Assembly: GCA_018304585.1 (NCBI GenBank)
Contig: JAGVVY010000030.1
Span: 21,434-79,389 of the forward strand
DNA from: Candidatus Aenigmatarchaeota archaeon
Lineage (GTDB): Archaea > Aenigmatarchaeota > Aenigmatarchaeia > GW2011-AR5
Direction: 5' to 3'
DNA length: 57,956 nt
In this document: positions 40,276 through 57,956 of the stretch, in pieces
How positions within the stretch are numbered: the first letter of the stretch is position 1
Layout of the letters: each line of letters opens with the position of its first letter
Notes under the pieces: model-generated
What the model saw: only the letters and a program-made list of their open reading frames with translations
The model's database searches: none
Told to the model about the DNA's origin: nothing
Program-made: the position numbers and the translations under genes

Positions 40276-40280
40276 AGTAT

Positions 40281-42868: not shown

Positions 42869-43005
42869 AGTCTTATTCGAGACTAAATATCAAGAAATCG
42901 CAGCCTGAATCGGCGTGTATGGATGTTGTTTCCGTTTTGCTTGAAAGGCGCCCGGCTTAAGCCGAAACCTATTTTTCTGATTTTAGACGGGATCTACAGT
43001 AGACA

Positions 43006-44244
43006 TTACTTGCTTACCCAGCCGCTCGAGCCGCTGCAGATGTAAAGCATGTCCGAAGACGGGTTGAACTTCATCCTGCCTTGTTCCGCTTCCTCATTGC
43101 AGTCGTCCGAAGGCGGCGGGCCTAACGCAGTGTCGATCTGCAGGTAGCCCTTTATCTGGGCATCGCTTGCGGGATTTGGCGTCCCTACGCCAAGCTTGCC
43201 GTTCACATAGAATATCCCGGGCTGCCACGCCCCATACGTCCTGTGTATCGCAAACTCCGCAGCGCGGCGGTCTTCTTTGGATAAGGGCACGGTTTTGCCG
43301 AAAAATCCAATTATTATGCCAAGATCGTCATAAGTGACTTTGCCGTCGCCGTCAATGTCGGCTTCCGCGTACTGTGAGTCATTCAAATACAATAAAGACG
43401 TGTCCGTGGCGGCCAAATATGCGGTTAGGCGGTTTATATCAAGCACATTCACGAAGGCGTTGCCGTCCAAGTCGCCGCTTCCGCCCTGCGTGAGAATGGA
43501 GCCTGCGATGCTCAGGGCCGCAGGCGGTGCAGTGTCGCGCACCCCGACGTTTCCGTCAGCGGCGATGCGCATAATCTCGCCTGCCTTGCTGCCGAGAGCC
43601 AATTCATCCGAAGACAGGATAAGAAGGCCCGCGTTGGGGAAGGCTTTGATTATTGACCGGAGTTTTCCGGAGCCGTCGGAAAACTGGATCGTTTCCTGTG
43701 CAATCAGCGCGATGCTGGGTGTGACAAAGGATATTCCGTTTGGATTTATCAATGCGCCTGTGTCTCCGGCGGCAACGTGTAATTTGGCGGCGGGATCGGC
43801 TGTTCCGATGCCCAATTTGCCGTCATTGGTGATCACGGCCAGGTCATTTCCTGCCATATCCAGAAAACGTATCATCTGCGATGCGTCGGCGGCCATGCCC
43901 GTTATCAATGACTTGCCCATCAAAAAGATGGACGGCTCCGGCGGGGATGCGATAGGAGCGGGAGAGCCTCCCTCTCCTCCCGAGTAGCCTCCGGGCGGTT
44001 GCACTGGGCGTGACGGCGGCGCGAGGGTAGTGGTCGTTGCTGAATCATCGTCCGGCGATCCTGCGCCCCCATGAGGCAGCGGAGGGAGCTGTTCCGGGAG
44101 AGGTGTGGCGTTTTCCTGCGGGGGAATGGTGACAGCTTCCTTTGAAAAATTTGAAAAAAATACGTATTGCAATACGAGTGCAGAAACGACCACAAGTATT
44201 ATTGCTATGCCAAGAAGCGGTGTAAGTTGTCCAGAATAACGCAT
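43006..44244 (-). CDS. N-terminally anchored surface protein with Pro-rich stalk and dockerin-like Ca-binding repeat pair
   Basis: TM segment LLGIAIILVVVSALVL; PPLPHGGAGSPDDD...; repeats DGKLGIGTADPAAKLHV and NGKLGVGTPNPAS; GDLDGNAFVNVLDINRLTAYLA and ADIDGDGKVTYDDLGIIIGFF (43318..43485). Confidence 0.7.
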   Translation of the reverse strand: MRYSGQLTPLLGIAIILVVVSALVLQYVFFSNFSKEAVTIPPQENATPLPEQLPPLPHGGAGSPDDDSATTTTLAPPSRPVQPPGGYSGGEGGSPAPIASPPEPSIFLMGKSLITGMAADASQMIRFLDMAGNDLAVITNDGKLGIGTADPAAKLHVAAGDTGALINPNGISFVTPSIALIAQETIQFSDGSGKLRSIIKAFPNAGLLILSSDELALGSKAGEIMRIAADGNVGVRDTAPPAALSIAGSILTQGGSGDLDGNAFVNVLDINRLTAYLAATDTSLLYLNDSQYAEADIDGDGKVTYDDLGIIIGFFGKTVPLSKEDRRAAEFAIHRTYGAWQPGIFYVNGKLGVGTPNPASDAQIKGYLQIDTALGPPPSDDCNEEAEQGRMKFNPSSDMLYICSGSSGWVSK

Positions 44245-44511
44245 TATTTATATATTGAGGGCTTTCTTATAAAGCTAATGCATCTTGGGGAGCTTTGTTT
44301 AATAAATGGTTTTCTCGCACAAGATGTTGCGTTTTGATAAACCTATGGCACAGCCTGTTGTGGCTGTAAGGGATTATTTGAAGTGCCCTGCTATGCGATA
44401 AACAGGCTGGCTGTATGAACGAGTTTCGCACCGCAAGGCAATATGTTATCATCAACCGCCGCGCTCTACTGCACGTCTCGAAGAAGTAAATCTTAACAAC
44501 TTAAGAAATTG

Positions 44512-45051
44512 TCAGACAGAGGCGCTCTTTCCGCAGCCGCAGGTCGCCTTGGCATTCGGGTTGTTCACTTTAAAGCCAGAAGCCTGAAGGCTTTCAATAT
44601 AATCTATCGTAGAGCCGTCGACTTTTCCGGCTTCCTTTTTGTTCATGTATATCTTTATGCCTTTGTCTTCGGCTATGACGTCGCCTTCCTTGGGCACGTC
44701 GAATTCCATGGTATAGCTATAGCCTGCGCAGCCGCCGGGTCGCACGCCAAAGCGCAGGCCCTGCCCGGGCTTGGATTCTATTCCAAGTTCCTTCATCTTC
44801 TTCGCTGCGACGTCAGTAAGCGATACAGATGCCCTATCAGAATCATTGTCATCCTGCTTCAGATCATTTAGTTTTTTCAGAAGCAGATTCGTCTCAACAC
44901 CCTGCATTTTCGCCGCAGTTTCTATCGTATCTGACATATCGGCGCCGCAGCCGAGCTTCATGTCAAAGGATCTGAGAACTTCGACAGCGCCCGGATATTT
45001 CTCAAGGACTTCCCCGAGCGGCATTGCGCCATTTATAGCCATAAGAATCAC
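44512..45051 (-). CDS. DUF1858-like domain fused to an IscA/HesB-type Fe-S assembly protein
   Basis: N-terminus PLGEVLEKYPGAVEVLRSFDM..GCG; C-terminus LRFGVRPGGCAGYSY...FKVNNPNAKATCGCGKS. Confidence 0.8.
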   Translation of the reverse strand: MILMAINGAMPLGEVLEKYPGAVEVLRSFDMKLGCGADMSDTIETAAKMQGVETNLLLKKLNDLKQDDNDSDRASVSLTDVAAKKMKELGIESKPGQGLRFGVRPGGCAGYSYTMEFDVPKEGDVIAEDKGIKIYMNKKEAGKVDGSTIDYIESLQASGFKVNNPNAKATCGCGKSASV

Positions 45052-45052
45052 T

Positions 45053-45304
45053 TTAGATTATCTTCTTGCCCGTTTCCTTGTCTATTATGTGTATGATATT
45101 TGCCGGGCAGCCCTCTGCAGCCTGCTTGTTGCAGTCAAGGTCGGCCTCGTCTATCTCCAGCACGTGAAGCTCGCCTTCCTTGTGCGAGCCGACAAGGTCG
45201 GCCTTGCCGTCATCCGCCATGACCCAGTGCTTGTCGGCGAGTGCCGCGCAGACGCCTGCGCCTATGCATCCGGATCTCTGGTATTCTATTCGGTATTTGC
45301 CCAT
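45053..45304 (-). CDS. Small ferredoxin (single-cluster type)
   Basis: MGKYRIEYQRSGCIGAGVCAAL...CNKQAAEGCPANIIHI. Start chosen at the internal ATG. Confidence 0.7.
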   Translation of the reverse strand: MGKYRIEYQRSGCIGAGVCAALADKHWVMADDGKADLVGSHKEGELHVLEIDEADLDCNKQAAEGCPANIIHIIDKETGKKII

Positions 45305-45539
45305 AATTATCTCATCATGATTAAATTCAAAGTTTAAAAATCTACTGTTTTCAGACAGTATATCTGCATATAGGCGGCTATTAATCATCTGTATTTTTCT
45401 TGCGCATTTTCGGATAAATTTTGTCCCAGACCATCCTAAAGTCTTTTTCTAATAATTCAAGCGCTTTCGTATGGGTTTCATCTCTCATGCAATAAAAATC
45501 ATCTTACAGTTATTTAAACGGCAAGGGGAAAATTACATT

Positions 45540-46535
45540 ATGGGCATACAGCTAACGCCCCTGGCAAAAGGAAGGCGGATAGAAATAAGCGAGCTTTCGG
45601 GAAGGATCATTGCAGTTGATGCCCTGAACTGGATTTATCAATTCCTGTCAATAATACGGCAAAGAGATGGACAGCCATTGATGGATTCTTCCGGCAATAT
45701 TACTTCCCATCTCTCAGGGATATTTTACCGCTCCCTGAATCTTATGGAAGCCGGAGTAAAGCTTGTCTATGTTTTTGACGGCAAACCACCTAAATTGAAG
45801 GAAAAAACCGCAGAACTGCGTCGGGAAGCAAGAAAAGAAGCTGCTGAGAAATGGCAAGCTGCAAGGGAACGCGGAGATGACGAAGAAGCAAAAAAGTACG
45901 CAATGCGTTCTTCAGTCATAACGAATCAGATGCTTGAGGAATCTCGTTTGCTGCTTGACGCTATGGGAATTCCTTGGATAATCGCTCCTTCTGAAGGTGA
46001 AGCTCTTTGTTCTGTCATGGTTGCCAAGGGTGATGCATATGCCGCGGCAACGCAGGACTATGATGCTTTCCTTTTCGGGTGCTCGCGGGTCGTAAGGAAC
46101 CTCTCGATCTCAAACAATAAGCGCAACATATTTCCGGAGATGCTGACGGTCAAGGACTTGACAGAATCACTGGGCATAACGCGGGAGCAACTTATCTTAT
46201 TAGGCATCCTTGTTGGGACAGACTATAACCCAGGGGGAATTAACGGCATAGGCCCGAAGAAGGCATTGGCGCTAGTGAAAAAACATCCGACACTCAATGA
46301 GATTCTTCCTAACATCCAATGGCCGTTTGAAGTACCTATGCAGGAAATATTTGACTTCTTCTACACGCCCATAGAAGCCGCTTACGAGATAAAATTCAAG
46401 CCCCTTGACACTGAAAACGTCAAAGAGATACTGTGTAACCGGCATGAGTTTTCTATTGAACGCATAGAGAGCGGTCTTGCAAGAATCCAGGAAACAAAGG
46501 CCGCCGGCCAGAAATCATTGAATAAGTGGTTTTAG
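45540..46535 (+). CDS. fen: Flap endonuclease 1
   Basis: MGIQLTPL....I....L.G..IAVDALNWIYQFLS.IRQ.DG.PL.D..G..TSHL.G.FYR..NL.E.G.K.VYVFDG.PP.LK; GEAEA-like SEGEALC; H3TH motif GTDYNPGGI.GIGPKKAL. Confidence 0.95.
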   Translation: MGIQLTPLAKGRRIEISELSGRIIAVDALNWIYQFLSIIRQRDGQPLMDSSGNITSHLSGIFYRSLNLMEAGVKLVYVFDGKPPKLKEKTAELRREARKEAAEKWQAARERGDDEEAKKYAMRSSVITNQMLEESRLLLDAMGIPWIIAPSEGEALCSVMVAKGDAYAAATQDYDAFLFGCSRVVRNLSISNNKRNIFPEMLTVKDLTESLGITREQLILLGILVGTDYNPGGINGIGPKKALALVKKHPTLNEILPNIQWPFEVPMQEIFDFFYTPIEAAYEIKFKPLDTENVKEILCNRHEFSIERIESGLARIQETKAAGQKSLNKWF

Positions 46536-46559
46536 ATAATTGATACAAATATATATGAG

Positions 46560-46883
46560 TTAGCAACCGCATCTAGCTAGGCACTGTTTAGAAAATTCCG
46601 GACCTTCTGCGATTCCAGAAATAGTGCAAAGTTCTCCAAGCGTAACAGGAGCTGGCTCCTCCTCTCCTGCTTTTGTATATGTGACTCGCGCACTGACTAG
46701 AGAAACTTCCGCGCAATTATAAGTTGTTCTTGCAATATCACAGGCGTTTGCTATCGCAGTGCTAAGGGGTATCTGGCTAGTGGGCTGAAAACCACCTACG
46801 AAAAAGCCCGCGATGACCATCATTACAAGGACAGCTATCGCAACGACGACAATAGTGTTTATCGGCAGTGAAACGCCCTTCAT
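46560..46883 (-). CDS. Pilin-like protein P1 (class III signal-peptide-like N-terminus, Cys-rich)
   Basis: MKG|VSLPINTIVVVAIAVLVMMVIAGFFVGGF...; 6 Cys; ends QCLARCGC. Confidence 0.7.
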   Translation of the reverse strand: MKGVSLPINTIVVVAIAVLVMMVIAGFFVGGFQPTSQIPLSTAIANACDIARTTYNCAEVSLVSARVTYTKAGEEEPAPVTLGELCTISGIAEGPEFSKQCLARCGC

Positions 46884-46916
46884 GTTTTCATATTGGGGCT
46901 GGGATTATATAAAGAT

Positions 46917-47303
46917 TCATTCTTCAGCAGAAGGCGGGCAGAATGCAGCGCAACATATTCGGGCGCAAGCCGCGTCGAGTTCTGTCGAGCCGGCACATTC
47001 CGAAACGCTTGCAGTCCGGCAAGCCGAGACCAGCGCCCTTCCTTTTTCTATCTGGGCGGCGGTTGCCTCAGCAGCGCCGTCGCCGGCCGGCACCGTGAAG
47101 AATTCGCTGTTTTGTTCTTCCTTGCATTGCGTCTTGGCCGCGTATTCGCCGCACACGCTTGCTATCGTCTGCCGCGCCTTTAGCTCCTCAGTCGCGGGAG
47201 TGAAAGAGCCGAAGAAAAACAGCAGCACCGCCACAAGGACAATGATGGACAGTATGACTATAACAATCGTTTCTACCGGCAGTGCCGAACCTTTCATTTT
47301 CAT
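46917..47303 (-). CDS. Pilin-like protein P2
   Basis: MKMKG|SALPVETIVIVILSIIVLVAVLLFFFGSF...; 8 Cys; ends CARICCAAFCPPSAEE. Confidence 0.7.
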   Translation of the reverse strand: MKMKGSALPVETIVIVILSIIVLVAVLLFFFGSFTPATEELKARQTIASVCGEYAAKTQCKEEQNSEFFTVPAGDGAAEATAAQIEKGRALVSACRTASVSECAGSTELDAACARICCAAFCPPSAEE

Positions 47304-47329
47304 AATTGATACCTAAGCTATATATTCCT

Positions 47330-48472
47330 TCATGCGCCGCCCTGACATTCGTATCCTATCCGCGTGGCGGTGCATTCGGGGTTGGCGCATATTTCAATCT
47401 CTGCCCATGTCCCGCCGAATGCCTGGCAGCAAGTCTGGCTGCCCTCCTTTTCCGGGCGGTCGCAGAAATACGAGCCGGTGCAGGCATAGTTGCCATAAAC
47501 TCCGCCGCTTACCGTGTTTTCCCCTATGCCCGTCAAGGGCGTGCCGCACGTGAATATTTGCCCGCCAGAGCATACGGTGTCGCCGAAGCGGGCTATGTTA
47601 TATCGCCCTGCCCGCGATGCGCAATTGAGCGCAGTTGCTGCGCCTGCGGATCTTACGGGAAGCGTGAAGTGCGCTTCCACGAACCGTGTATCGTCAAAAT
47701 GCCGGTTGAGGCTGCTTTTATCCGTTGCGACAGAATCGACGGCATAACGAAGATCGATGCCTTTCTTTCCTTCCGATGCTTCTATTGACGTAGAGATGCT
47801 TTCTACGTTTGCATCGACGTTTCCGCCGGACAGCCTTGCAACTGCTGAAATTATCCTGTTGCGCACGTCATCTTCGTAGGCTATTGAACTCATATCGGAT
47901 GTTGAATATTGGCGCGCTGTGACTGTTTCGGTTATTGTGCGCTCAATGGCATTGCCCTTCTCTATCATGAGCGGGAGAAGCACGGCGACTGAATACTCCC
48001 TCAAGAAAGATGCCCGTGCGCTTGACTCAAAGAAATTTATTCCTATCTTGCCTTTAGCACGGAGATTGACTCTGTTATCTAGTATCTCAAACTCCGGATC
48101 TATCCCGTTTAAGTTGAGAACAATCCTGTTTATGTCAAGGCTCCTGTCAGGAAGCAGGCTCCTGGCATTCTGCGACAGGCGTTCTTGCGCGAATTCCTTC
48201 GTGATGCCGGACTTCCAGTCCCAGCCTGAGGATTCCTTGGCAAGCAAGAACACGGATTCAGGGGCGGCGATTTTCCAGAACGTATCAAGGCTTCTGTTTG
48301 CGGCCCAGTAGGCGTTGTTTACGGTGTAAAGCTTTGCTTCTTCCTGCGCCATGAATATCTGCCGCCCGGTGGACGTTAATATGAACACTACAAGTATTAC
48401 GGAAAATCCAACGACCATGATGGTCATGAACAGGGACTGTATCATCCCTCCCTGGCCTTTCAGTTCAGTCAC
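47330..48472 (-). CDS. N-terminally anchored Cys-rich protein P3 (380 aa)
   Basis: GTG start overlapping the P4 stop (GTGACTGA). MTELKG|QGGMIQSLFMTIMVVGFSVILVVFIL. C-terminal Cys cluster including TCCQAFGG. Confidence 0.7.
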   Translation of the reverse strand: MTELKGQGGMIQSLFMTIMVVGFSVILVVFILTSTGRQIFMAQEEAKLYTVNNAYWAANRSLDTFWKIAAPESVFLLAKESSGWDWKSGITKEFAQERLSQNARSLLPDRSLDINRIVLNLNGIDPEFEILDNRVNLRAKGKIGINFFESSARASFLREYSVAVLLPLMIEKGNAIERTITETVTARQYSTSDMSSIAYEDDVRNRIISAVARLSGGNVDANVESISTSIEASEGKKGIDLRYAVDSVATDKSSLNRHFDDTRFVEAHFTLPVRSAGAATALNCASRAGRYNIARFGDTVCSGGQIFTCGTPLTGIGENTVSGGVYGNYACTGSYFCDRPEKEGSQTCCQAFGGTWAEIEICANPECTATRIGYECQGGA

Positions 48473-49328
48473 TGGTCGTCACCTTTACATAACCCGTCCT
48501 GTCCTTGTAGAACATCGGTATCTTGGCCTCGGCAATCTTGCCCTGAATCTCCAGCACTTCAGGATCGATGGAACAGCAATAAGGGGCCTTGCCGTTGTTC
48601 GCAAGCTTGCATGCGTCTTCATACTCAGGCAACCGTATCGTGCTTCCGCATCCTCCGCCGGAACATATGCCCTTTTCAAGCGGGCCGCATTTTACAACCC
48701 CGATTCTTTCCTTTTCAGGGCGGTCATATTTTACATCAAGCCACTTGTTGTAATCTTCTTCGCTCGCAGCGGTGCAGCAGACCTTCCGCGCTTCTGCAAA
48801 GGAACGGCTGCAGGAGTTCGAGCCGCCTTCTATCTCCACCTTGCCGGCATTGCAACTTCCCATAAGAACGCCGCCGCTGAACCCGCCGGAAACTTCCTGA
48901 ACGCAAACGCCCTGCAGGCCGCTGCCGCATTTCTGAAGGCTGCCGGACTGAAGGATCGGCATATCTTCCCCGTCGGTCTCAAGGCTTATCTCATAATAGT
49001 TCAGGTCATATTCTCCCAGGAATCTTGACATCTCTATTCCGAGCCTTTCTTTCTTTGCAGGATCCATCCCCCCCCGAATGAAAGCCTCGTACATATGGGT
49101 CATTATAGGTTTCCCTTCAACCGTGGCGTTCGTAAGTATGCTCGCAACCGTGTAAGGCGTGTTTATCACGTCCAGATAATTTACTGCGTATACTGCCTGG
49201 CCCGGATTCAGCGGGCAGAACGGCAATTCAACGCATATGAGCATGAACAACAGAACTATGAGAGATATCACTATAGCTATAATCAAGATTTTCGTCCCAA
49301 GAACGCTGTCTATGAATCCTTTCTGCAT
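48465..49328 (-). CDS. N-terminally anchored Cys-rich protein P4 (287 aa)
   Basis: MQKG|FIDSVLGTKILIIAIVISLIVLLFML; multiple Cys pairs (KVCCTAAS, PYCCSID). Confidence 0.7.
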   Translation of the reverse strand: MQKGFIDSVLGTKILIIAIVISLIVLLFMLICVELPFCPLNPGQAVYAVNYLDVINTPYTVASILTNATVEGKPIMTHMYEAFIRGGMDPAKKERLGIEMSRFLGEYDLNYYEISLETDGEDMPILQSGSLQKCGSGLQGVCVQEVSGGFSGGVLMGSCNAGKVEIEGGSNSCSRSFAEARKVCCTAASEEDYNKWLDVKYDRPEKERIGVVKCGPLEKGICSGGGCGSTIRLPEYEDACKLANNGKAPYCCSIDPEVLEIQGKIAEAKIPMFYKDRTGYVKVTTSD

Positions 49329-49329
49329 T

Positions 49330-50253
49330 TTACAGCCCCTTGTCTATGCAAAGATAAATTTGCCCGATCTCTTCGCGGGTTTCTGCGACCTTGCTCTCGT
49401 AATCGCCGCACTCGGCGTTGTCAGCTTCAAGCGTTTCTCCTTTCCGCAGGGGCACGGCCTTGAGCGCGAACTGCGGCGATGCATACGTCACTATGTGAGC
49501 GTCAAGCGAATAGTAAAAGTCGTCAGGAAGCCTGAATGAATCAAACGGCAGCGCATCGTCAATGGTGCGGCATCCCCGCGTTTCCTCCCTGCCGTCTTCT
49601 GCTTTAATGTAGCAAAGCTGGCCGGATTCTTTTTTCAAATATAAATTGCAATATTCGCCTCTTATCCGTGAGCCCGCAAGTCCCGGCACGGCGGTTTCTT
49701 GGGTCTCTACGCACGCAATCGAAGTAGCCAGCGTTTGCGCCTGGCCCGTTGCATAAGCTTCTGCAAGCATGCACGATACATCCGTGAGCCATGTTCTATA
49801 GACCTTTATAGTGAGCTTTGCAGGGCCCGTATATTCGCCGCGCCTGACTGCAACTGCAAATTCTTTTTCGGCATCGTTCGAGTATTCTTTGCTTACATCC
49901 GACGGTTCAAACCCAAATTCCCATGCGTTTCCTCCGTCGGCATTTTTTATTTTGGGATCAAGGCTTTCTATTTTCATGTGATATGCCATGCTGCAGTGGC
50001 GGCCTATAGGCTCTTGCAGCGGACTTGCCATATATTCATCGAGTTTTTCGGCGAGGAATATCCCCCTCTGCTCGGTAGCGGGACCGGATAGCAGCGTGTT
50101 TCCTATCTCACGCGAGGCCTTCTGCGTGAAATCGAGTCCTGTAGTCGTGTACACGTTGGTCATAAACAGTACCATAGCTACTATGAAAATGCCGAATGCT
50201 ACCATACGAATGACTGCAAGAATCTCATCGGGAACTGGAAATTCTTCTGACAA
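49330..50253 (-). CDS. N-terminally anchored protein P5 (307 aa)
   Basis: TTG start at 50253 or ATG at 50205. Single TM MVAFGIFIVAMVLFM. Confidence 0.65.
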   Translation of the reverse strand: MSEEFPVPDEILAVIRMVAFGIFIVAMVLFMTNVYTTTGLDFTQKASREIGNTLLSGPATEQRGIFLAEKLDEYMASPLQEPIGRHCSMAYHMKIESLDPKIKNADGGNAWEFGFEPSDVSKEYSNDAEKEFAVAVRRGEYTGPAKLTIKVYRTWLTDVSCMLAEAYATGQAQTLATSIACVETQETAVPGLAGSRIRGEYCNLYLKKESGQLCYIKAEDGREETRGCRTIDDALPFDSFRLPDDFYYSLDAHIVTYASPQFALKAVPLRKGETLEADNAECGDYESKVAETREEIGQIYLCIDKGL

Positions 50254-50257
50254 ATTA

Positions 50258-50644
50258 TCAGCCTCTCACAATTATTATGTTTTCATTTCTTTCAAATACA
50301 ATTTGGTCGTGCTCGGAGCAGTCAAATCTTGCAGGCACGACGGCGGCTGCATACTGTATCGTTCCGACAGACGCCTTGGCTTCTTTTTCTCCGGGACTAA
50401 GCGTCATAGTTACGCGGTCGCCCAAGGTAAGGATGCATTCCTTGTCCGGAAGCTCATACGAATGGCTCGTGCCCGGAGGCGATTGCTGCATTATGTTAAT
50501 AATTCCGGATATTTCCGAGGCGTATCTTTCCGCAGAGAGCTGCCCTGCCTGGGCCGCGCCCTGATATAGCGGGCTGTATGCCGCGATTATGACTATGGCG
50601 GTCACCAGAAGCAGGATAGTAAAGAACATCATCATGCCTTTCAT
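50258..50644 (-). CDS. Pilin-like protein P6 (128 aa)
   Basis: MKG|MMMFFTILLLVTAIVIIAAYSPLY. Confidence 0.65.
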   Translation of the reverse strand: MKGMMMFFTILLLVTAIVIIAAYSPLYQGAAQAGQLSAERYASEISGIINIMQQSPPGTSHSYELPDKECILTLGDRVTMTLSPGEKEAKASVGTIQYAAAVVPARFDCSEHDQIVFERNENIIIVRG

Positions 50645-50675
50645 GACGATACTTGTCCTGATGCTCTAATATCCT

Positions 50676-52034
50676 TTAGCGCGGGGCGCTCCACGGCCAC
50701 TGCCATGTCACGCCGCCCGCTTTGCCCCTGATCCTGTCCCATATCGCGGCGATCTCCGAGGGCTTGACCGTCGGTACCGTGTAAATGAAAATGTTCTTCT
50801 CGACAGCTATTACATTGTCCTTGACAGGCGTTGGGCGGTCGTTTATCGCGGGGGTTTCCGGTATAAAGCCGAAGGGAGGGTTGTATGTGTAGCAGCCCCC
50901 GTTCTGCCTCTCCTGTGTTTCCACGATGACGCAACTGGGGGGCTTTTCATTCGCCGCCTCATCAGCGGCTTTTTCGCGCTTCATGCCGTCCATGCATATA
51001 TAACTATAATCGGAATTTTCCTGCGACCTGTAGAACTTCTCGCCGTCATATGAATAAAGCGGGTATTTTGCATATTTGTCGCAAGTGCATTCCCCCACGC
51101 GCACCGTTATCTTGTCTATCTGGCAGGGGCTGTTCAGGTAAAAATTGCTTTGGTCCTTGTCATCAAGCGCATATATGTCCGCCGGAAGAACGGGCAGTAC
51201 CAATCCTGCAGGGCTTGGGGTTATGATGCCTTTAATTGCATCATAAAGGCTGACGGCTTTGGCATTCAGTTCTATGTGCGCAGGAGCCGCGACTTCGGGA
51301 TCGCCGGTTGCCGCTGCACAATTCTTGAGAGGCAGCGTGTACACGGCCGCAGGCGTCTTTACGCAAAGCGAACCTGCGCCGCATGCCATATATTTGACCA
51401 GCGTCTTGTTGAAATCCGACGGGCTGTAGCTCAGAACGAATGTTCCGTCAGGATTGCGTTTTCCTGCGCCTGCGTTCTGCCTGATGCCGCCCGTTCTTGC
51501 AGGTTCCATGCTCAAAAGGTCCGTTGATTCGGGAAGTATTATGTTATTCACGGCTATTTCGTAATTTTCTATGCCGAGTTCCTGAAGCTTCGGGAGGGCT
51601 TTCGCGCGGACGTCTTCCTTGAATTGGAGAAACTGCTCGCGCGTGAATGCGTCTCCGTAATCTATCTGTGCGAATACGATTGCCTGAGGCAAACCGTCGT
51701 GCAGATACGTCTCCCAGCTCACCGCTTCGCCGATCGGGAATGCCTCGTAATATAAAAGGTACTCCGGATCGGCGTCCATCTTTATCTTTGCGGCGGCCTG
51801 CAGGGCATACGTCGTGCTTCCCTGCGGCATCCCGAATTTGGCAACTTCGACTTCCTTTCCCGGCCCGATAAAGCAGGCTTCCTCTATGGCGCTTCTGAGC
51901 TTTTCCGTGTTTGCAAACGATATCTGTTCATACGGTTTGAGGTCGGCAAACAATACTACAATGAATATTATGACTATTATAGCTACAAAGAGGCTTGTCA
52001 TCGTGTTAAGTACAAGGACCGTGGTCTCGCTCAT
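50676..52034 (-). CDS. N-terminally anchored protein P7 (452 aa)
   Basis: MSETTVLVLNTMTSLFVAIIVIIFIVVLFADL plus a large ectodomain with scattered Cys. Confidence 0.7.
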   Translation of the reverse strand: MSETTVLVLNTMTSLFVAIIVIIFIVVLFADLKPYEQISFANTEKLRSAIEEACFIGPGKEVEVAKFGMPQGSTTYALQAAAKIKMDADPEYLLYYEAFPIGEAVSWETYLHDGLPQAIVFAQIDYGDAFTREQFLQFKEDVRAKALPKLQELGIENYEIAVNNIILPESTDLLSMEPARTGGIRQNAGAGKRNPDGTFVLSYSPSDFNKTLVKYMACGAGSLCVKTPAAVYTLPLKNCAAATGDPEVAAPAHIELNAKAVSLYDAIKGIITPSPAGLVLPVLPADIYALDDKDQSNFYLNSPCQIDKITVRVGECTCDKYAKYPLYSYDGEKFYRSQENSDYSYICMDGMKREKAADEAANEKPPSCVIVETQERQNGGCYTYNPPFGFIPETPAINDRPTPVKDNVIAVEKNIFIYTVPTVKPSEIAAIWDRIRGKAGGVTWQWPWSAPR

Positions 52035-52153
52035 GGAAGATACCCCTTGATGATGCTCCAGAGATCTATATTGGCATTTGAAATGTAAGCCAGAAGCACT
52101 GCCAGAAGTATCAGCATTGCGGCCATTGAAACAGCAATTTCGACAGGTTTCAT
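52031..52153 (-). CDS. 40-aa single-TM micro-protein P8
   Basis: Hand-translated as MKPVEIAVSMAAMLILLAVLLAYISNANIDLWSIIKGYLP*. ATGA overlap with the P7 start. Confidence 0.5.
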   Translation of the reverse strand: MKPVEIAVSMAAMLILLAVLLAYISNANIDLWSIIKGYLP

Positions 52154-52154
52154 T

Positions 52155-52307
52155 TTATCTGCCTATAATTCTGAATAAGCTTGTTATCTTATCGGTAAGG
52201 AAATCCGAGTTGGGAAGGAATATGCTCATGGCCAGGCCCATCACCAATGCGATTATAAGCATAGACCAACCGGCCCTTACCAATGTTTCTATGTTCAGGG
52301 ATAGCAT
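52155..52307 (-). CDS. 50-aa single-TM micro-protein P9
   Basis: MLSLNIETLVRAGWSMLIIALVMGLAMSIFLPNSDFLTDKITSLFRIIGR*. Its stop lies 1 nt before the P8 ATG. Same frame as P10. Confidence 0.45.
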   Translation of the reverse strand: MLSLNIETLVRAGWSMLIIALVMGLAMSIFLPNSDFLTDKITSLFRIIGR

Positions 52308-52361
52308 ACTCTCGCTGAATATTATGGCAATGGCGGCATTTATGCTTTCTTTGCCTGCGTT

Positions 52362-53234
52362 TCACGCCGGCTTGTCCCTGCATTCGTTGCCTGACCATTC
52401 GCAGTTCGCCCGTGCCCATGCGCAGCCCGTGCACTTGTCGCTCCCGGAGTCGTCGAATACGGGAGTGTAGTCTGAGCACGTCTCGGTCACCGGGCATGCA
52501 AAGCACTGCCCCCCGGATTTAGCGCCAGCAAGGAATGACCTTTCATAGTAACATACATCGTAAGGCGGTTCTATGCTATTGCACTGCATTTCGTCCCTTG
52601 CATCCTCGCATACAACACTCCCAGCGCATGTTCCTTGCAGCATGAGGCCTATACTTGCAGAATTTAGGTAGCTCTCAGGGCATTGATCCAAAAGATAGGA
52701 CGAGTCCGCGATTTTATTTGTCCCTTCTTCCACTATGATATTTTCAGTTCCTATCTTCCTCTTTATGCAGTCGCTGTTTCTCCATGCCGTCAGCCGAACG
52801 AACGCGGTCCTGTCGTCTATCTCCTGCACTTCGTCATGGAGCTCTGCATAGAGATCTGCGGACAGAAAAGGCTCCCCTTCAAGCGAAAGGACGCGGTTTT
52901 TTTCCGCTTTCCATTCCGGCAGCTGCCCCAATACCATGAGATTTTTGCGTAATTCCGCCACGACTATGAAACTCAATTCCGGGTCCTTCTGCGTGGCAAA
53001 GCCGATGCCGGGAAGGCTGATGGCATAGTCATAACTGCCGCCCATGAGTTTGCAGGACAGAGGGGCGCGCTCAGGGAGTTTTTCTATTGTGAGAAGGCCC
53101 GGCTCGAACGTTTTTATATACCGTTCCGCTTCGGCTTCGGATTCATTCTTGTATTCGTTTATCACCATCATGATGACCATCATAGCCGTGAAAATTAGTA
53201 CAACCATGAGCAAAGTTCGTTTCATGTCTTCCAT
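52362..53234 (-). CDS. N-terminally anchored Cys-rich protein P10 (290 aa)
   Basis: MEDMKRTLLMVVLIFTAMMVIMMVI. C-terminal ~90 aa contain 14 Cys. Confidence 0.7.
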   Translation of the reverse strand: MEDMKRTLLMVVLIFTAMMVIMMVINEYKNESEAEAERYIKTFEPGLLTIEKLPERAPLSCKLMGGSYDYAISLPGIGFATQKDPELSFIVVAELRKNLMVLGQLPEWKAEKNRVLSLEGEPFLSADLYAELHDEVQEIDDRTAFVRLTAWRNSDCIKRKIGTENIIVEEGTNKIADSSYLLDQCPESYLNSASIGLMLQGTCAGSVVCEDARDEMQCNSIEPPYDVCYYERSFLAGAKSGGQCFACPVTETCSDYTPVFDDSGSDKCTGCAWARANCEWSGNECRDKPA

Positions 53235-54125
53235 TCAAGCCACCTCAAGGAGCCCTTTTTCCGCATCATACCGTCCCAGAAACGCGTTATAACATTCCGG
53301 GCGCGATATCAAATCGGCGTAAGTTATCGCATTTTCAACGCACGAGCCCGGGGTGCCCTTGTTCCAGAAGCTAATGTGCACGGTTTCTGATATCTCCCCG
53401 CCGCCTCCGCCCTTTACGATCATCTTTGTTTCAGCGCTTTTTCCGCAGTCGATTTTTCCCAGCGATATTTCGATTTCGCCATTGCACAGCCCGACAATCC
53501 TGTTGCATTCCGAAGGCAGATCGCCTTCTTTGCACTCCTTGAGCTGCACGGTCTTGGCGTCATTTTCGCATAAAATGTTGAAGAACGCTATGCATTCGCC
53601 TGCAATAAGGAATTTTTTCCTAAGTTCCGAAAGCTTAATCTGGTAGCTTCCCGTATCTTTCAGCACGACAGATTCTTCAGGAGCCATAATCCCTTCAAAT
53701 TCGTTTGACCGCAAATCGCGTATAGGAGGCTCGTTGCTGACTATATGCGCGGTCACAGTGCCCTTGAATTCGGCGCTTTCGGGCGTAAAGGTAAAATAGT
53801 CGTTGCCTGTTTCGCTGACAAGCATCTTAGCGCTTTTCCCTTTGAATTCTACGACAGGGACTGCATCAATTCTGGCTGCAGTTTCCTCGTTGATTTTGCG
53901 TGAATATTTTGCTATAATATCCATGGAAATCGAATATTCATGGCCTGAGCCTAATTTTCTGTAGGTTATGTCAGGTTCGGACGCAAATGCCACGACTATG
54001 TCGTTATCGCTGTTTGTATCTGCAGCGGCCTTCTTGACGTTGGAGGGAAAGATGTACAGCATCAGCATGAAAGCCACGAAAATGAGTATTACTGACAGAA
54101 TAACTTCCCTCGGGACGACAATCAT
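53235..54125 (-). CDS. N-terminally anchored protein P11 (296 aa)
   Basis: MIVVPREVILSVILIFVAFMLMLYIF. Its stop abuts the P10 ATG (TGAATG). Confidence 0.7.
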   Translation of the reverse strand: MIVVPREVILSVILIFVAFMLMLYIFPSNVKKAAADTNSDNDIVVAFASEPDITYRKLGSGHEYSISMDIIAKYSRKINEETAARIDAVPVVEFKGKSAKMLVSETGNDYFTFTPESAEFKGTVTAHIVSNEPPIRDLRSNEFEGIMAPEESVVLKDTGSYQIKLSELRKKFLIAGECIAFFNILCENDAKTVQLKECKEGDLPSECNRIVGLCNGEIEISLGKIDCGKSAETKMIVKGGGGGEISETVHISFWNKGTPGSCVENAITYADLISRPECYNAFLGRYDAEKGLLEVA

Positions 54126-54137
54126 ATATCATGCACT

Positions 54138-54287
54138 TCAGAACGGAATTCCTATGGCCGCGAGAAAGTTTGATTTATCAAGCGCTCCGGAAAGCACCAT
54201 GAATACTATCGCGGCGCCTACCAAAAAAATAATCAATACGGGCATCATCTCCATGACGAGCGAACTTATGCCCTTTTTGGCCGTCAT
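54138..54287 (-). CDS. 49-aa Flp/pilin-like micro-protein P12
   Basis: Hand-translated as MTAKKG|ISSLVMEMMPVLIIFLVGAAIVFMVLSGALDKSNFLAAIGIPF*: basic N-terminus, Gly, then a hydrophobic helix. Confidence 0.5.
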   Translation of the reverse strand: MTAKKGISSLVMEMMPVLIIFLVGAAIVFMVLSGALDKSNFLAAIGIPF

Positions 54288-54391
54288 AAGAACCTCCCGA
54301 ATATCCATCCCGCGATGCCCACAAGTATAAGCCCCGTTATAAGAAATATAAAGATTTTAAGAAGCAGGGTCATGTCAAAGGATGCTTTCAT
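54284..54391 (-). CDS. 35-aa single-TM micro-protein P13 (first gene of the array)
   Basis: MKASFDMTLLLKIFIFLITGLILVGIAGWIFGRFL*. ATGA overlap with P12. Confidence 0.45.
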   Translation of the reverse strand: MKASFDMTLLLKIFIFLITGLILVGIAGWIFGRFL

Positions 54392-54463
54392 GCTTATCTA
54401 TTGGCGTTAGAACGGATAAAGATTCCGCTGCAACCATTAAAACTTTCCCGTTCAAAGAAAACC

Positions 54464-54976
54464 ATGGTACTGCCACTCTTAGCACAGTCCCTCTGGTTCA
54501 TACTTCCGGCGTATTCCGCCAATGCGTTTCCCGTGATCGCCAAAGGCAAGCATCCCCTTGATATGGGGCGCACGTTCATGGGAAACCGTCTTCTGGGCGA
54601 CGGAAAGACGCTCGAAGGCTCGGTCACGGGCATCGCGTTCGGCACGCTCGCAGGGACGCTTCAAGTTTTTGCCCAGCCGTATATGCCGGCAAATTTCGTG
54701 TTCATGACGACAGAACTCGCTTTCGTGCTGAGCTTTGGCGCGATACTCGGGGACATAGTCGGCGCCTTCATCAAGAGGCGCATTGGCATACCGCGCGGAG
54801 GGTCGGCGCCGCTGCTTGACCAGCTGGATTTCCTTGCAATGGCCCTGCTTCTCAGCGCGCCGCTGCAGGCTCTGGACGGCTCCGTGTATGCGGCGTTGAT
54901 TATAATGACGCCTATAGTGCATCTTTCCGCCAACAGGCTTGGTCATTACCTGAAGCTGAAGGAAGTGCCGTGGTAA
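54464..54976 (+). CDS. carS: CDP-archaeol synthase
   Basis: LWFILPAYSANAFPV......PLD.G..F.G.R.LGDGKT.EG...G...G; GD..GAFIKRR.G..RG...PLLDQLDF. Start chosen at the internal ATG (MVLPLLAQ). Confidence 0.85.
   Translation: MVLPLLAQSLWFILPAYSANAFPVIAKGKHPLDMGRTFMGNRLLGDGKTLEGSVTGIAFGTLAGTLQVFAQPYMPANFVFMTTELAFVLSFGAILGDIVGAFIKRRIGIPRGGSAPLLDQLDFLAMALLLSAPLQALDGSVYAALIIMTPIVHLSANRLGHYLKLKEVPW
54947..54973. repeat. 27-bp exact direct repeat, copy 1 (3' end of carS)
   Basis: tacctgaagctgaaggaagtgccgtgg. The repeat extends to 32 bp with one mismatch, which turns TAA into CAA in copy 2. Confidence 0.9.
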
Positions 54977-55012
54977 GTTTCAATCGCCTTGCATGTGATT
55001 TCATTCATAAAA

Positions 55013-55039
55013 TACCTGAAGCTGAAGGAAGTGCCGTGG
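55013..55039. repeat. 27-bp exact direct repeat, copy 2 (intergenic, 66 bp downstream, in frame)
   Basis: Same 27-mer. Confidence 0.9.
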
Positions 55040-55043
55040 CAAG

Positions 55044-55529
55044 TCAGTGCAGCAGGCCTGCAACAGCGTCTATGCCCAGAACTGTCGCATATGCCAATAT
55101 CAGGTAGCGCATGACTTTTCCGGACAGCGTGGCGATAAAGAATTTCCTTGCGTCGTATTTTATCGCGCCGCAGAACAGCCCCATCACGTCAAAAGGCAGG
55201 GGCAGGGCGGAGAATGCGAATATGATCGCAACGCCGTTGTATCTGGCAAACCAGTTCTTCAGCCGTTCAAACCATGCGTTCAAGTCCTTTTTCGCCTTGC
55301 CTGAAAGCTTCCTGCCGCCAAGGCCGATGCCGTAGCTTGTCATCTCCCCGACGGCTGAGCCTGCGCCTGCCACGACGCCTACAAGGAAGGGATTGAGGGT
55401 AGTGGCAGCAATGGGAATTACGAGATATCCCGGCAGCGGAAGAAATATCGTGGCGCTGGATATGGCCGATACGAGGAAGAGCCCCAGATATCCGAATTGC
55501 TCAAGAAGCGCGAGCGCAAGGCCTTCCAT
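55044..55529 (-). CDS. DedA/SNARE-associated (VTT-domain) membrane protein
   Basis: FGYLGLFLVSAISSATIFLPLPG......A; ...F..R.......F.ALPLPFD......G......KF. Confidence 0.75.
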   Translation of the reverse strand: MEGLALALLEQFGYLGLFLVSAISSATIFLPLPGYLVIPIAATTLNPFLVGVVAGAGSAVGEMTSYGIGLGGRKLSGKAKKDLNAWFERLKNWFARYNGVAIIFAFSALPLPFDVMGLFCGAIKYDARKFFIATLSGKVMRYLILAYATVLGIDAVAGLLH

Positions 55530-55578
55530 TCGGATAATTTGCCGGCGAACTTAAAAAGGTTCTGCGATATTTAGGGTT

Positions 55579-56160
55579 ATGCTGGCAGGCAAAAGGGACA
55601 AATTCGCCTTCCTTGAAAAGGCCTTGGGGCCCGCGTTTTCGTTCCTGCCGGCAAACGCGTGGACTCTTATTGCGGTTCTCTTCTCCGCAGGCACGGCATA
55701 TTTTCTTGCCACGCAGCAGTTCCTCTATGCAGGCGCGGCCCTGTCGGTGACGGGCCTTCTTGACATGGTTGACGGCGCTGTCGCAAGAGCCACGAAAAAA
55801 GCCGGGCCGAAAGGAGCCTACCTGGATACGATTGCCGACAGATACGCGGAAGGGATAATAATATTCGGCCTTCTGCTGTCGGGTCTTCCTTCAATAGCCC
55901 TGCCTGCATACTACTGGATATTCATTTACTTCTTCGGTGGGTCTCTGACGACGTACGCTAAAGCGGCGTTCAAGGAAAAGACAGGCAAAGATTTAGGGGG
56001 CGGGCTTGTTGAAAGGGCAGAGAGGCTTGTTCTTCTTGCTATAGGCGTCTTCATGGCAGCTATTAATCCGGACTATCTCATGTATATTATCATGCTCCTT
56101 GCGGTTCTGACTAACCTGACAGCCGTTCAGAGGATAATGGCAGGGCTTAAAAATGTATAA
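55579..56160 (+). CDS. CDP-alcohol phosphatidyltransferase (archaetidyl-headgroup synthase family)
   Basis: DMVDGAVARATKKAGPKGAYLDTIADRYAE fits DGx2ARx8Gx3Dx3D. Confidence 0.85.
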   Translation: MLAGKRDKFAFLEKALGPAFSFLPANAWTLIAVLFSAGTAYFLATQQFLYAGAALSVTGLLDMVDGAVARATKKAGPKGAYLDTIADRYAEGIIIFGLLLSGLPSIALPAYYWIFIYFFGGSLTTYAKAAFKEKTGKDLGGGLVERAERLVLLAIGVFMAAINPDYLMYIIMLLAVLTNLTAVQRIMAGLKNV

Positions 56161-56497
56161 ACAAGTAATTATCATAAGAACAGACCTTAAAATGGGCAAA
56201 GGCAAACTAGCCGCCCAGTCTTCTCATGCATCTTATTCTTCAGCAAAAAAAGCGGCAAAGAAGATGCTGGATGCATGGGAGAATGAAGGCCAGAAAAAAA
56301 TAGTTCTCAAAGTTGCAAGCGAGAAAGAATTGCTTGACCTGGAAAAGAGATGCGCCAAAGCCGGAATTCCGTGCGCGTTGATCATGGATGCCGGCAAAAC
56401 CCAGCTTGAACCGGGTACTGTAACTGCTTTGGGAATAGGGCCTGAAAGGGATGATAAAATTGACCAAATCACAGGAAACCTTGCGTTACTTGGGTGA
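56153..56497 (+). CDS. pth2: Peptidyl-tRNA hydrolase, archaeal type
   Basis: KQVIIIRTDLKMGKGKLAAQSSHAS...W...GQKKIVLKV.SE.EL..L...A...G.P.ALI.DAG.TQ.EPGT.TALGIGP. Confidence 0.9.
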   Translation: MYKQVIIIRTDLKMGKGKLAAQSSHASYSSAKKAAKKMLDAWENEGQKKIVLKVASEKELLDLEKRCAKAGIPCALIMDAGKTQLEPGTVTALGIGPERDDKIDQITGNLALLG

Positions 56498-57413
56498 GTC
56501 GCCCGGAACAGGCGGACAGGTCAAAAGTCCTGAAGATTTTATCGTGGAAGAGATTGTCGAGCCGAAGTTCTTGCGCAAATATCGCATCTTAGGCGGCAAA
56601 GTGCAGCCCATAGAGGGAAGGTATACATTGGCAATAATGAGAAAGAAGCTCCTTACGACCGAGCAGGCCGTGAAAAGGCTGGCCTCGCATCTTAAGGCCG
56701 ACGTAGGCTATGCAGGCCTGAAAGACAAGTTCGCGGTCACTTCGCAATACGTGACATTCCCTTCAAATTACGAGCCGCTTCTTCAGACGTTCCATGACGA
56801 TTCCGTGAGCGTCGAAAAAATCGGGCGCACTGACCGGCAGATAAGCCCCGGCGACCTTTCAGGCAACCGGTTCACGATAACCCTGCACGGCGCAAAGCCG
56901 ACCAGGATACTGGAAGAGCTTCAGGCCTTCCCAAATTATTTCGGGCCGCAGCGTTTCGGCGCCGGCGGGAGGAACGCAGAGATAGGGCGGCTCATAGTGC
57001 GGAGGCGTTTTGACGAGGCGTTAAAAGAAATAAATGATATGTATAAAACGCGGTTCGCCGGCATAAGGAAGGTCGACAAGAAGCGCCTGAAGTTCTTTGT
57101 GCACGCATACCAGAGCCTTCTCTTCAACGAAATGCTTGCTTCGGGCAAGGCGGCAGTGATTCCGGGCTATTCGTTTGTGCCGCCGTTTGTAAGGAAAAAA
57201 GAGGGCGTTCAGGAACAGGACTTCAAGATACGGGAACTGTCCATGTCTTTTCGGGGAGGGTCAAGAGATCTGTTCGTCCAGCCGAACATAGAGCATTCGT
57301 ATGCAAACAAGAAGTTGACGCTCAAGTTCACGTTGCCCAAAGGCGCATACGCCACGTCAATACTGCGCGAGATAACAAAGAGCGGAGATTTCATACGCAG
57401 AACGAAGGATTGA
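56451..57413 (+). CDS. truD: tRNA pseudouridine synthase TruD/Pus7 family
   Basis: PEDFIVEEI, YAGLKDKFAVTSQYV (catalytic Asp), NYFGPQRFG. The 47-nt overlap with pth2 suggests the true start may lie further downstream. Confidence 0.85.
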   Translation: MIKLTKSQETLRYLGESPGTGGQVKSPEDFIVEEIVEPKFLRKYRILGGKVQPIEGRYTLAIMRKKLLTTEQAVKRLASHLKADVGYAGLKDKFAVTSQYVTFPSNYEPLLQTFHDDSVSVEKIGRTDRQISPGDLSGNRFTITLHGAKPTRILEELQAFPNYFGPQRFGAGGRNAEIGRLIVRRRFDEALKEINDMYKTRFAGIRKVDKKRLKFFVHAYQSLLFNEMLASGKAAVIPGYSFVPPFVRKKEGVQEQDFKIRELSMSFRGGSRDLFVQPNIEHSYANKKLTLKFTLPKGAYATSILREITKSGDFIRRTKD

Positions 57414-57558
57414 AACTTCGGGCAATGCCGTTGGATTCTTCGTCGCCGACAGCGCTTCGGGCCGTGGTATGGCGTGAACATCGCGTTATATTCAAAAACT
57501 TGCTGTGCCGTCAGGTAAAGGTTAAATAGGTGGGTCTGATACTTTAATCAGTGTTGTC

Positions 57559-57956
57559 ATGGAACTCCATATTCTATTGATATATATTCTGGCGTATGTA
57601 GGCCTTTTCACAACGTCTTTCTACGCGCTTAGCATGGCTTCGTATTACAGGAAAAAAGACAACCCGTCCGAAGCCGAAGACAAGAGCGTCAGCATCGTCA
57701 TTCCTGCGCACAACGAAGAGAAGGACATCGCAAAAACCATAAAATCCGCCATGGGGATAAATTATCCGAAGGGCAAACTGGAGGTCATAGTCGTGGACGA
57801 CGGCAGCACCGATTCCACGTATGCGATAGCCAAGTCCTTTCCAATAGCCGTTTTCACGAAAAAAAGGGGTGGCAAGGGCGCAGCGCTGAACTACGGCATC
57901 GGGCAAGCCAAAAATGAAATAATAATAACGATGGATGCCGACACCATAGCAGAGCC
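57559..57956 (+). CDS. Glycosyltransferase family 2, membrane-associated, 5' partial (runs off the window)
   Basis: Hand-translated as MELHILLIYILAYVGLFTTSFYALSMASYYRKKDNPSEAEDKSVSIVIPAHNEEKDIAKTIKSAMGINYPKGKLEVIVVDDGSTDSTYAIAKS...GKGAALNYGI..A..EIIITMDADT. Absent from the track because it has no stop in the window. Confidence 0.8.
   Translation, partial: MELHILLIYILAYVGLFTTSFYALSMASYYRKKDNPSEAEDKSVSIVIPAHNEEKDIAKTIKSAMGINYPKGKLEVIVVDDGSTDSTYAIAKSFPIAVFTKKRGGKGAALNYGIGQAKNEIIITMDADTIAE

Follow-up and report, generated by a model that had tools for sequence, protein, structure and literature searches.

The 57,956-nt stretch of DNA analysed here (hereafter the window) comes from a Candidatus Aenigmatarchaeota archaeon (contig JAGVVY010000030.1, positions 21,434 to 79,389) and carries, at 46560-54391, an operon of 13 open reading frames (ORFs), named P1 to P13, whose products we read with good confidence as parts of an archaeal type IV pilus-like machine. 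When the ORF coordinates were re-checked in the window, all 13 were found on the minus strand and tightly packed; neighbouring ORFs either overlap or are separated by gaps of 0-54 nt, the widest (54 nt) lying between P10 and P9. This is the coupled arrangement that an initial annotation, made from the letters alone, had reported, and its remark that the operon holds no ATPase, platform or peptidase gene also stands. The operon is flanked by FEN1 (45471-46535), its convergent downstream neighbour, and on the opposite side by the genes for CDP-archaeol synthase (CarS), PTH2 and TruD.

A hydrophobic segment is present within the first ~30 residues of 13/13 operon products, compared with 14/49 other ORFs of the window, in agreement with the N-terminal helix that had been seen in every ORF. 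The cysteine (Cys) content of the operon proteins is 3.1%, against 0.8% for housekeeping proteins (n=19), and the number of Cys is even in 9/9 of the larger operon proteins. The ectodomains had been described as Cys-rich and 100-450 aa long; the first part of this description is correct, but those of P1, P2 and P6 measure only ~70-100 aa. Since the other secreted proteins of the window are equally rich in Cys, the Cys richness of the operon is a feature of the organism's exoproteome as a whole.

Next to FEN1 lie the two candidate major pilins. P1 (46560-46883, 107 aa, 6 Cys) belongs to the subtype that begins MKG|VSLPINT, where the bar marks the predicted cleavage site, and ends in CGC, and P2 (46917-47303, 128 aa, or 126 from the second Met) begins MKG|SALPVET and ends in CC. 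P3 (47330-48472, 380 aa, 10 Cys) is a large pilin-like protein with the K-G leader LKG|QGG; its orthologues in all lineages show KG|(V/A)GTT followed by a transmembrane (TM) helix and are 360-1021 aa long, and this large, size-variable protein is the best candidate of the set for a tip subunit or adhesin. P4 (48465-49328, 287 aa) is Cys-rich and minor pilin-like, with the leader QKG|FID, and its family has 10 invariant Cys, two CC pairs among them, as well as a conserved acidic residue right before the helix. P5 (49330-50253, 307 aa, 8 Cys), an N-terminally anchored accessory without a K-G leader, keeps its position in all lineages and has an N-terminal (D/E)P..(R/K) that precedes the TM helix. 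The small, minor pilin-like P6 (50258-50644, 128 aa) begins MKG|MMM; the MKG is found in 6/9 lineages, the remaining ones starting with M-E-P-L-E at the predicted mature end, and an EIAGIIN motif and two invariant Cys mark the family.

P7 (50676-52034, 452 aa) is the signature N-anchored protein of the system, recognised by an invariant, membrane-proximal NPY..FAN.EKLR..EAC and by 10 Cys that are conserved; its C-terminus carries W.WPW. In the P7 orthologues of more distant lineages, whose loci bear L numbers here (L003, 4236-5870; L005, 1895-3754; L007, 406-1971; L009, 9914-11761; L011, 9836-11719), there is an inserted Gly/Ala-rich hydrophobic stretch with 1-4 extra predicted TM segments; as this insert is missing from the P7 of the window, the topology of P7 varies among lineages. 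Two single-TM micro-proteins follow, P8 (52031-52153, 40 aa) and P9 (52155-52307, 50 aa), and then P10 (52362-53234, 290 aa), a Cys-rich N-anchored protein with 14 Cys whose K-G leader is found only in relatives (KG|IAIN, KG|DETT and KG|EIER in L003, L005 and L009). P11 (53235-54125, 296 aa, 8 Cys) is another N-anchored accessory without a K-G leader, with orthologues in L001, L003, L009, L011 and many metagenome loci.

The micro-pilin-like P12, with MTAKKG|ISS, has a longest ORF of 56 aa (54138-54308); its start is most likely Met8 (54287), which would give 49 aa at 54138-54287, and this codon has GGAGG 7 nt upstream and an ATGA overlap with the stop of P13. In 7/7 lineages P12 shows (K/R)(K/R)G and then a TM helix. 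The first gene of the operon is P13 (54284-54391), which encodes a single-TM micro-protein of 35 aa. In L009 (7300-7674) and L011 (6993-7385), a P13-like N-terminal TM segment and P12 are joined in one ORF with the (K/R)G site mid-way, and cleavage at that site would give two small membrane peptides.

The reality of these genes was assessed mainly against L006, a 91%-identical relative (a Candidatus Aenigmatarchaeota metagenome-assembled genome) found by scanning a genome collection with a P7 profile. The ratio of non-synonymous to synonymous substitution rates (dN/dS) in this comparison is 0.06-0.38 across all 13 genes; for the micro-ORFs it is 0.096 (P8), 0.098 (P9), 0.070 (P12) and 0.056 (P13), with 8-20 synonymous differences in each. 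By this measure, all 13 genes are under purifying selection, the micro-ORFs included. Orthologues of P8 (consensus MRIEYVVV) and P9 are present in 8/8 lineages examined in detail, and L001 has a P13 homologue with an identical stop/start overlap. The public annotation of the same strain contains genes of 40, 50 and 49 aa and leaves P13 uncalled. Low dN/dS, orthologues in relatives and, for three of them, public gene calls all speak for the four ORFs under 60 aa that had been proposed as genes, and a chance run of ORFs is ruled out by the dN/dS values together with the synteny described below.

Concerning their N-termini, in P1, P2, P3, P4, P6 and P12 of the window a hydrophobic helix comes after a (K/R)-G leader, and the six K/Q-G motifs quoted in the initial annotation are all present in the translations. 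Across lineages every P3 and P12 orthologue has the leader, as do some orthologues of P4, P6 and P10. It is best documented in the P1/P2 family, which comprises 59 proteins with the N-terminal consensus MKG|VSLAIETIIYLILA (MKG|VSLAIETI); K2 and G3 never vary, I8, E9 and T10 hardly do, and 5-6 Cys are conserved. The published rule for archaeal class III signal peptides places a charged residue at -2 and G, A or S at -1, followed by a hydrophobic domain, and known leaders include KG|QV of EpdB/EpdC, KG|QI of EpdE and RA|VS of PilA4 (PMC4371748); the P1/P2 N-termini agree with this rule in sequence. Some P4 and P6 orthologues without a leader start at about the predicted +1 position, with a conserved acidic residue shortly after, which would be indirect evidence that the leader is removed.

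These recurrences support the earlier view of the N-termini as class III prepilin-like. The wider claim, that the whole set consists of pilins, is sustained for about half of it; P5, P7, P8, P9, P11 and P13, which have no leader in any or most lineages, are better called membrane-anchored accessories, and are probably assembly or base parts.

To view the candidate major subunit as a fold, AlphaFold2 was run on P2 with a 58-sequence alignment; the model has a predicted local distance difference test score (pLDDT) of 81 and consists of a 49-residue helix (residues 8-56) followed by three short helices. The long helix has about the length (~50 residues) of the one that precedes the globular head in the pilin fold. 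For P7, a 5-sequence alignment gave a model of pLDDT 49, too poor for use. When the P1/P2 profile was compared with PDB sequences, two hits near E=1 were obtained, 8fk7 and 6xxe, both of them subunits in multi-chain filament entries, and one of these alignments begins at the PDB protein's own MKTKG| leader; this echo is suggestive but not significant. An all-vs-all hhalign comparison of 12 families returned only a likeness of the N-terminal helix (81% for P10 and 78% for P9, each vs P1/P2), which may be compositional, so that no paralogy is claimed.

The P1/P2 end of the operon is also variable. One to three P1/P2-type genes are found per locus, at times inverted, always between P3 and FEN1. 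At the nucleotide level the window and L006 share 59% identity over P1 and 70-84% over P2, with an abrupt rise to 96-99% at the FEN1 boundary; the P1 protein is 45% identical to its L006 counterpart, while the FEN1 gene alongside is 99% identical at the nucleotide level. This hyper-divergence, with the variation in copy number, fits what would be expected if the subunits are abundant and exposed and recombination replaces them. The ATG of P1 has a TATA-like TTTATATAA at 22-30 nt upstream, from which we infer that P1 may have its own promoter. In the surrounding region (40000-57956), synonymous divergence (dS) from L006 is a mosaic, with 0.017 for FEN1, 0.075 for PTH2, 0.67 for CarS and 1.35 for a DedA-like gene, and the gene of a dockerin-domain protein (43006-44244) is not in L006; these two observations suggest frequent recombination.

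Searches for known families gave nothing that names the system. The scan of P1-P7 and P10-P12 found no match in Pfam or NCBIfam, and neither these ten proteins, at E<=1, nor 58 members of the P1/P2 family matched Pilin_N/DUF1628, Class_IIIsignal, Arch_flagellin, TadE or Flp. The initial annotation, which recognised no member as a known family, was right in this: Pfam and NCBIfam are blank for the ten proteins scanned, and PDB is blank by sequence and, for P2, by fold. Our reading of the literature found no description of the conserved gene set.

The set is widespread within one phylum. A word-indexed database returned few close relatives of P7, and a full HMMER scan of 1.84 billion representatives gave 201 clusters at 50% identity; all members of the P7 and P1/P2 families that bear an organism name are from Aenigm(at)archaeota. 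The gene order P12-P11-P10-P9-P8-P7-P6-P5-P4-P3-P2/P1 is kept in >20 distinct loci; a metagenome scan had contributed 60 loci, before de-duplication, to those compared. Separately, weak matches of ~50-60 bits, confined to the N-terminal ~100 residues of P7, occur at L062-L074, whose contigs lack the other operon families; other lineages may here have a domain remotely related to the P7 N-terminus. In L067 a secretion ATPase adjoins the match.

The assembly genes lie elsewhere in the window, 25-35 kb from the operon. A secretion ATPase of the PilB/FlaI/VirB11 family (20912-23143, minus strand, 743 aa; Pfam T2SSE, 3.8e-17) has a conserved core at about residues 285-615 and an N-terminal extension of ~280 aa. 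Its best PDB match is GspE of A. fulgidus (2oap, 5.8e-28), with FlaI at 1e-19 and CpaF at 1.6e-15; the NCBIfam FlaI model is matched at 4.5e-35 and 121 bits, the cut-off being 550 bits. A TadC/PilC-like platform (12300-14226, minus strand; Pfam T2SSF) is encoded by two overlapping ORFs, 13243-14226 and 12300-13388, which align to residues 16-292 and 300-653, respectively, of the single 660-aa orthologue of L011. At the break, near 13343-13390, the ORFs are in different frames and ~10 residues are missing; the gene may truly be split or be a pseudogene, or the assembly may be in error.

That these genes at 12.3-23.1 kb serve the operon in trans, as had been supposed, is supported by the loci of relatives. 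Among de-duplicated loci with a true P7 orthologue and sufficient upstream DNA, ATPase and/or TadC orthologues lie directly upstream of the operon, on the same strand, in 12 distinct loci, and in nine distinct loci both adjoin it. ATPase orthologues that are 65% identical to that of the window stand directly upstream in L008, L009, L011 and further loci; the platform orthologues of these three named loci are single ORFs of 660-712 aa, 46-50% identical to 12300-14226. In one locus (L051) the ATPase and TadC genes are near the operon in a rearranged order, in another (L021, 5932-8443) the usual coiled-coil and 212-aa neighbours of the ATPase abut it directly, and in 8-9 loci, all of one sub-clade, CarS lies upstream as in the window. 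FEN1 is the downstream boundary in both layouts, linked and split. Given the 12 loci with a same-strand motor upstream and the shared FEN1 end, comparison of the gene orders indicates that the ancestral locus is 5-TM paralogues, 212-aa gene and coiled-coil gene, then ATPase, platform, operon and FEN1, and that the lineage of the window has split its halves.

The neighbours of the ATPase in the window are a coiled-coil protein (23228-23587, plus strand), a 212-aa cytoplasmic protein (24382-25020, plus strand) and three paralogous ~5-TM proteins (25146-26716, minus strand), of which two to three copies occur across lineages. None of these has a family match; the same genes accompany the ATPase in L008 (345-2579), L009 (1-1632), L011 (1-1335), L020, L032 and L049, and their products probably contribute to the system as additional parts or as regulators. 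The three ~5-TM paralogues were considered as a prepilin peptidase and rejected, since they lack a GxGD motif and their one family match, to Bax1-I, stays below threshold. Between the coiled-coil and 212-aa genes, the window has a PIN-domain (VapC-like) gene (23877-24272, Pfam 6.3e-15), a window-specific insertion that is not at the corresponding position in L008, L009 or L011.

Between the ATPase and the platform, in the 14929-20884 region, lies the gene of a giant secreted, adhesin-like protein of 1865 aa with immunoglobulin (Ig)-like, M64-like and NosD/beta-helix regions. It occupies this interval in the window lineage only, being missing from that of L008, L009 and L011. A 124-aa ORF (20510-20884) with a Sec-type signal peptide shares with it a TTTTT...FC.SD.QC repeat and overlaps it by 17 nt; from the shared repeat and the overlap, a single gene of ~1985 aa has probably been broken in two by a frameshift.

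Taking these observations together, we consider it likely that the operon supplies the filament subunits and accessory proteins of a machine that is specific to Aenigmatarchaeota and resembles the archaeal type IV pilus, and the system is a sequence-orphan variant of the archaeal type IV filament kind. Cleavage, polymerisation, the division into major, minor and base roles, and adhesion are what we infer for its working. The operon proteins would enter the membrane by their N-terminal helices; a class III signal peptidase encoded elsewhere would trim the leader of P1, P2, P3, P4, P6 and P12, and of P10 in other lineages. The ATPase, as a hexamer, and the TadC-like platform would then pull the subunits out of the membrane, to polymerise by their ~50-residue N-terminal helices. 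P1 and P2, small, disulfide-locked, all-alpha, copy-variable and fast-diverging, would be the exposed major subunits, and P3, P4, P6, P10 and P12 minor pilins of low abundance with which the filament is primed or capped; P5, P7, P11, P8, P9 and P13 would stay membrane-bound and surround the platform as a base or an alignment complex. Such a filament would most likely serve to attach the cell to surfaces or to a host.

Several observations weigh against this interpretation. Filament formation, cleavage and adhesion are here predictions from the genes. The 58 P1/P2 members matched no pilin family in Pfam even at E<=5, only TM noise (TraP, FtsH_ext), and the P1/P2, P4, P6 and P7 family profiles gave nothing significant against PDB sequences. 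The predicted P2 head is all-alpha, without the usual beta-sheet, and the P2 model found no match in PDB by Foldseek (best E 3.8). A strict FlaFind-type pattern fits few orthologues, P1 and P2 of the window having Pro at +4, and 6/13 products (P5, P7, P8, P9, P11 and P13) never or rarely have a (K/R)-G leader. The platform gene is broken in a frameshift-like manner, so that the machine could be impaired in this strain. In the part of the genome that could be read and in the related loci, no Peptidase_A24/GxGD membrane protein was found, whether among window ORFs of at least ~90 aa that were taken for genes, in the 10 kb to the right of the window, or among the multi-TM ORFs of ~70 related loci. 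The archaeal prepilin peptidase is mostly a stand-alone gene (PMC4858521), so that its being missing from these loci is not strong evidence against a pilus.

A rather improbable alternative is a short pseudopilus, working as a piston, or a host-bridging device, in which a machine of the same class, with the ATPase and platform as its drive, would use a short stack of P1/P2 to export cargo or import DNA or other host material, or would belong to a DPANN attachment organelle. That 11/13 genes are minor-pilin-like or membrane-anchored makes the set more reminiscent of the pseudopili of type II secretion systems (T2SS) and competence systems than of simple adhesive pili, and the small all-alpha major subunit recalls subunits of the ComGC/Flp type. 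The giant beta-helix/Ig secreted protein between ATPase and platform would be a possible cargo; however, it is not in the ATPase-platform interval of L008, L009 and L011, and no gene for cargo recognition, a channel or DNA translocation is linked to the operon at any locus. DPANN archaea are host-dependent and the proteins of their attachment organelles uncharacterised (PMC11420986), which would suit a bridging device, but the hyper-variability and changing copy number of P1/P2 would suit an exposed filament better than a buried piston.

Far less probable is that the proteins form a signal-anchored, disulfide-rich envelope complex, unprocessed and independent of a motor, in which the K-G residues would be mere positive-inside anchors. 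This would account for the missing peptidase in the readable DNA, the lack of pilin homology and the half of the set without the motif, and in the sub-clade of the window it is lipid-synthesis genes (CarS, CDP-alcohol phosphatidyltransferase), not the ATPase, that adjoin the operon. It leaves without a reason the same-strand adjacency of ATPase and/or TadC in 12 loci, with the FEN1 boundary in both layouts; invariant K2 and G3 in n=59 P1/P2 proteins go beyond the need of a mere anchor, and the leaderless orthologues begin near the predicted cleavage site. A divergent archaellum (motility) cluster, to which the FlaI matches of the ATPase (NCBIfam 4.5e-35, PDB 1e-19) and the deposition of 8fk7, an archaeal filament subunit and the top weak P1/P2 match, as 'Flagellin' might point, can practically be dismissed, since at 121 bits the ATPase falls far short of the 550-bit FlaI equivalog cut-off, the A. 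fulgidus GspE-type ATPase fits better, and no archaellin, ArlF/G, ArlH or ArlC/D/E/X family occurs in the scanned ORFs of the window, operon included.

If the operon is a type IV pilus-like module, it provides a candidate conserved parts list for a surface filament of a whole phylum, with new components: a family of pilins whose head is predicted to be all-alpha and rich in disulfides, and conserved membrane micro-proteins of 35-50 aa, three to four in number. As arCOG and Pfam pipelines miss all 13 genes, the type IV filament systems of such genomes would be scored as 'motor only'. The hyper-variability of P1/P2 among strains that are otherwise nearly identical could serve as a marker for strain-level interactions with hosts or phages.

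We hold it possible, although doubtful, that the set, together with the ATPase, the platform and the coiled-coil and 5-TM neighbours, is a host-contact organelle of Aenigmatarchaeota derived from a type IV pilus. DPANN, to which the Aenigmatarchaeota belong, account for much of archaeal diversity and are regarded as living attached to hosts; if this reading is true, the genes would list, for the first time, the parts of a structure by which DPANN attach or form bridges, with P5, P7, P11 and the micro-proteins as an unusually elaborate membrane base, new all-alpha, disulfide-locked pilins, and rapid pilin replacement that would set host specificity. In Nanobdellota, cryo-electron tomography has revealed attachment organelles with filaments of uncharacterised protein make-up (PMC11420986); nothing in the present data links the operon to an attachment structure of that type.

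Further observations concern the rest of the window and its right flank. About 6-9 kb past the right end of the window, L012 (13815-19764) carries the genes of a 931-aa S-layer protein (PF05124, S_layer_C) and of an unannotated protein of 961 aa; with an S-layer protein beside the window, the organism probably has an S-layer, which any filament must cross. A secreted protein of 982 aa (1461-4409) contains 5.6% Cys and has no Pfam match, and an exact-sequence look-up of this protein and of the two platform half-proteins returned no record. A tRNA of 127 nt at 8643-8769, found by Rfam at 45 bits and not by ARAGORN, probably has an intron, and at 27675-33608 there is a minus-strand run without family matches around a GT4 glycosyltransferase.

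Concerning known systems, the pilin reading of DPANN islands has already been made in general form: Makarova, Wolf and Koonin (2019, PMC6393860, Fig. 2A) remarked on DPANN pilus islands in which unrecognisable signal-peptide proteins, a 'dark matter' of probable pilins, stand beside FlaI/TadC. Theirs is a generic example; the conserved set of 12-13 genes and its families do not appear in it, nor do the micro-proteins, the split layout or a pilin model.

In its descriptive features the architecture resembles that of euryarchaeal type IV pilus loci of Makarova clade 2, named System 2 by Sivabalasarma & Albers, such as PilB3C3 of Haloferax volcanii with PilA1-6 in trans and the PilB4 locus, and of the Epd cluster. 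As in System 2, the ATPase has a long N-terminal extension; there is a single platform gene, as in the relatives of the window; leader-bearing pilins accompany motif-less pilin-like proteins and small membrane proteins; and a large adhesin-like protein is nearby, as in the window. Archaeal ATPase/TadC modules that use in-trans pilins, and loci that mix leader-bearing and leader-less pilin-like proteins, have been described, and the pilin set of System 2 is separable from the ATPase/TadC module (PMC4858521; bioRxiv 10.64898/2026.04.22.720090), just as the two are split in the window. Unlike System 2, the present loci have no PilA/DUF1628 pilin by Pfam; all 13 proteins are sequence orphans, and for the pilin head the prediction is an all-alpha structure with many disulfides.

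The Epd pilus of Methanococcus maripaludis is likewise multi-gene and partly in trans, with an 11-gene cluster and the major pilin EpdE encoded elsewhere; most of its genes are required for piliation, and it has several minor pilins and a very small major subunit (PMC4371748; bioRxiv 10.64898/2026.04.22.720090). Its leaders are short and end in KG| (EpdB/EpdC KG|QV, EpdE KG|QI), as here. However, Epd has its own peptidase EppA, a +1 Gln rule and two platform genes; our family has V, I or S at +1, a conserved acidic residue at +6, no linked peptidase and no sequence similarity to Epd.

With the bacterial sets (GspH-K of the T2SS, FimU-PilVWXE of type IVa pili, ComGC-GG of competence systems, Flp/TadE/TadF of Tad), the operon shares the logic of one abundant, small subunit plus minor ones, four to five low-abundance pilin-like primers or caps being accompanied by bitopic membrane aligners. 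Unlike Tad and T2SS, no N-terminus has the Flp GxxxxEY motif, and there is no Pfam match to TadE/TadF or GspG-K. CpaF, the Tad ATPase, matches the ATPase of the window at 1.6e-15, more weakly than archaeal GspE at 5.8e-28, and the present envelope is that of a single-membrane archaeon with an ATPase nearer to archaeal GspE/FlaI. The initial annotation had compared the layout with a Tad/Flp-like set of major and minor pilins; the logic of such a set is retained here, but the operon is nearer to archaeal type IV pilus loci than to Tad/Flp.

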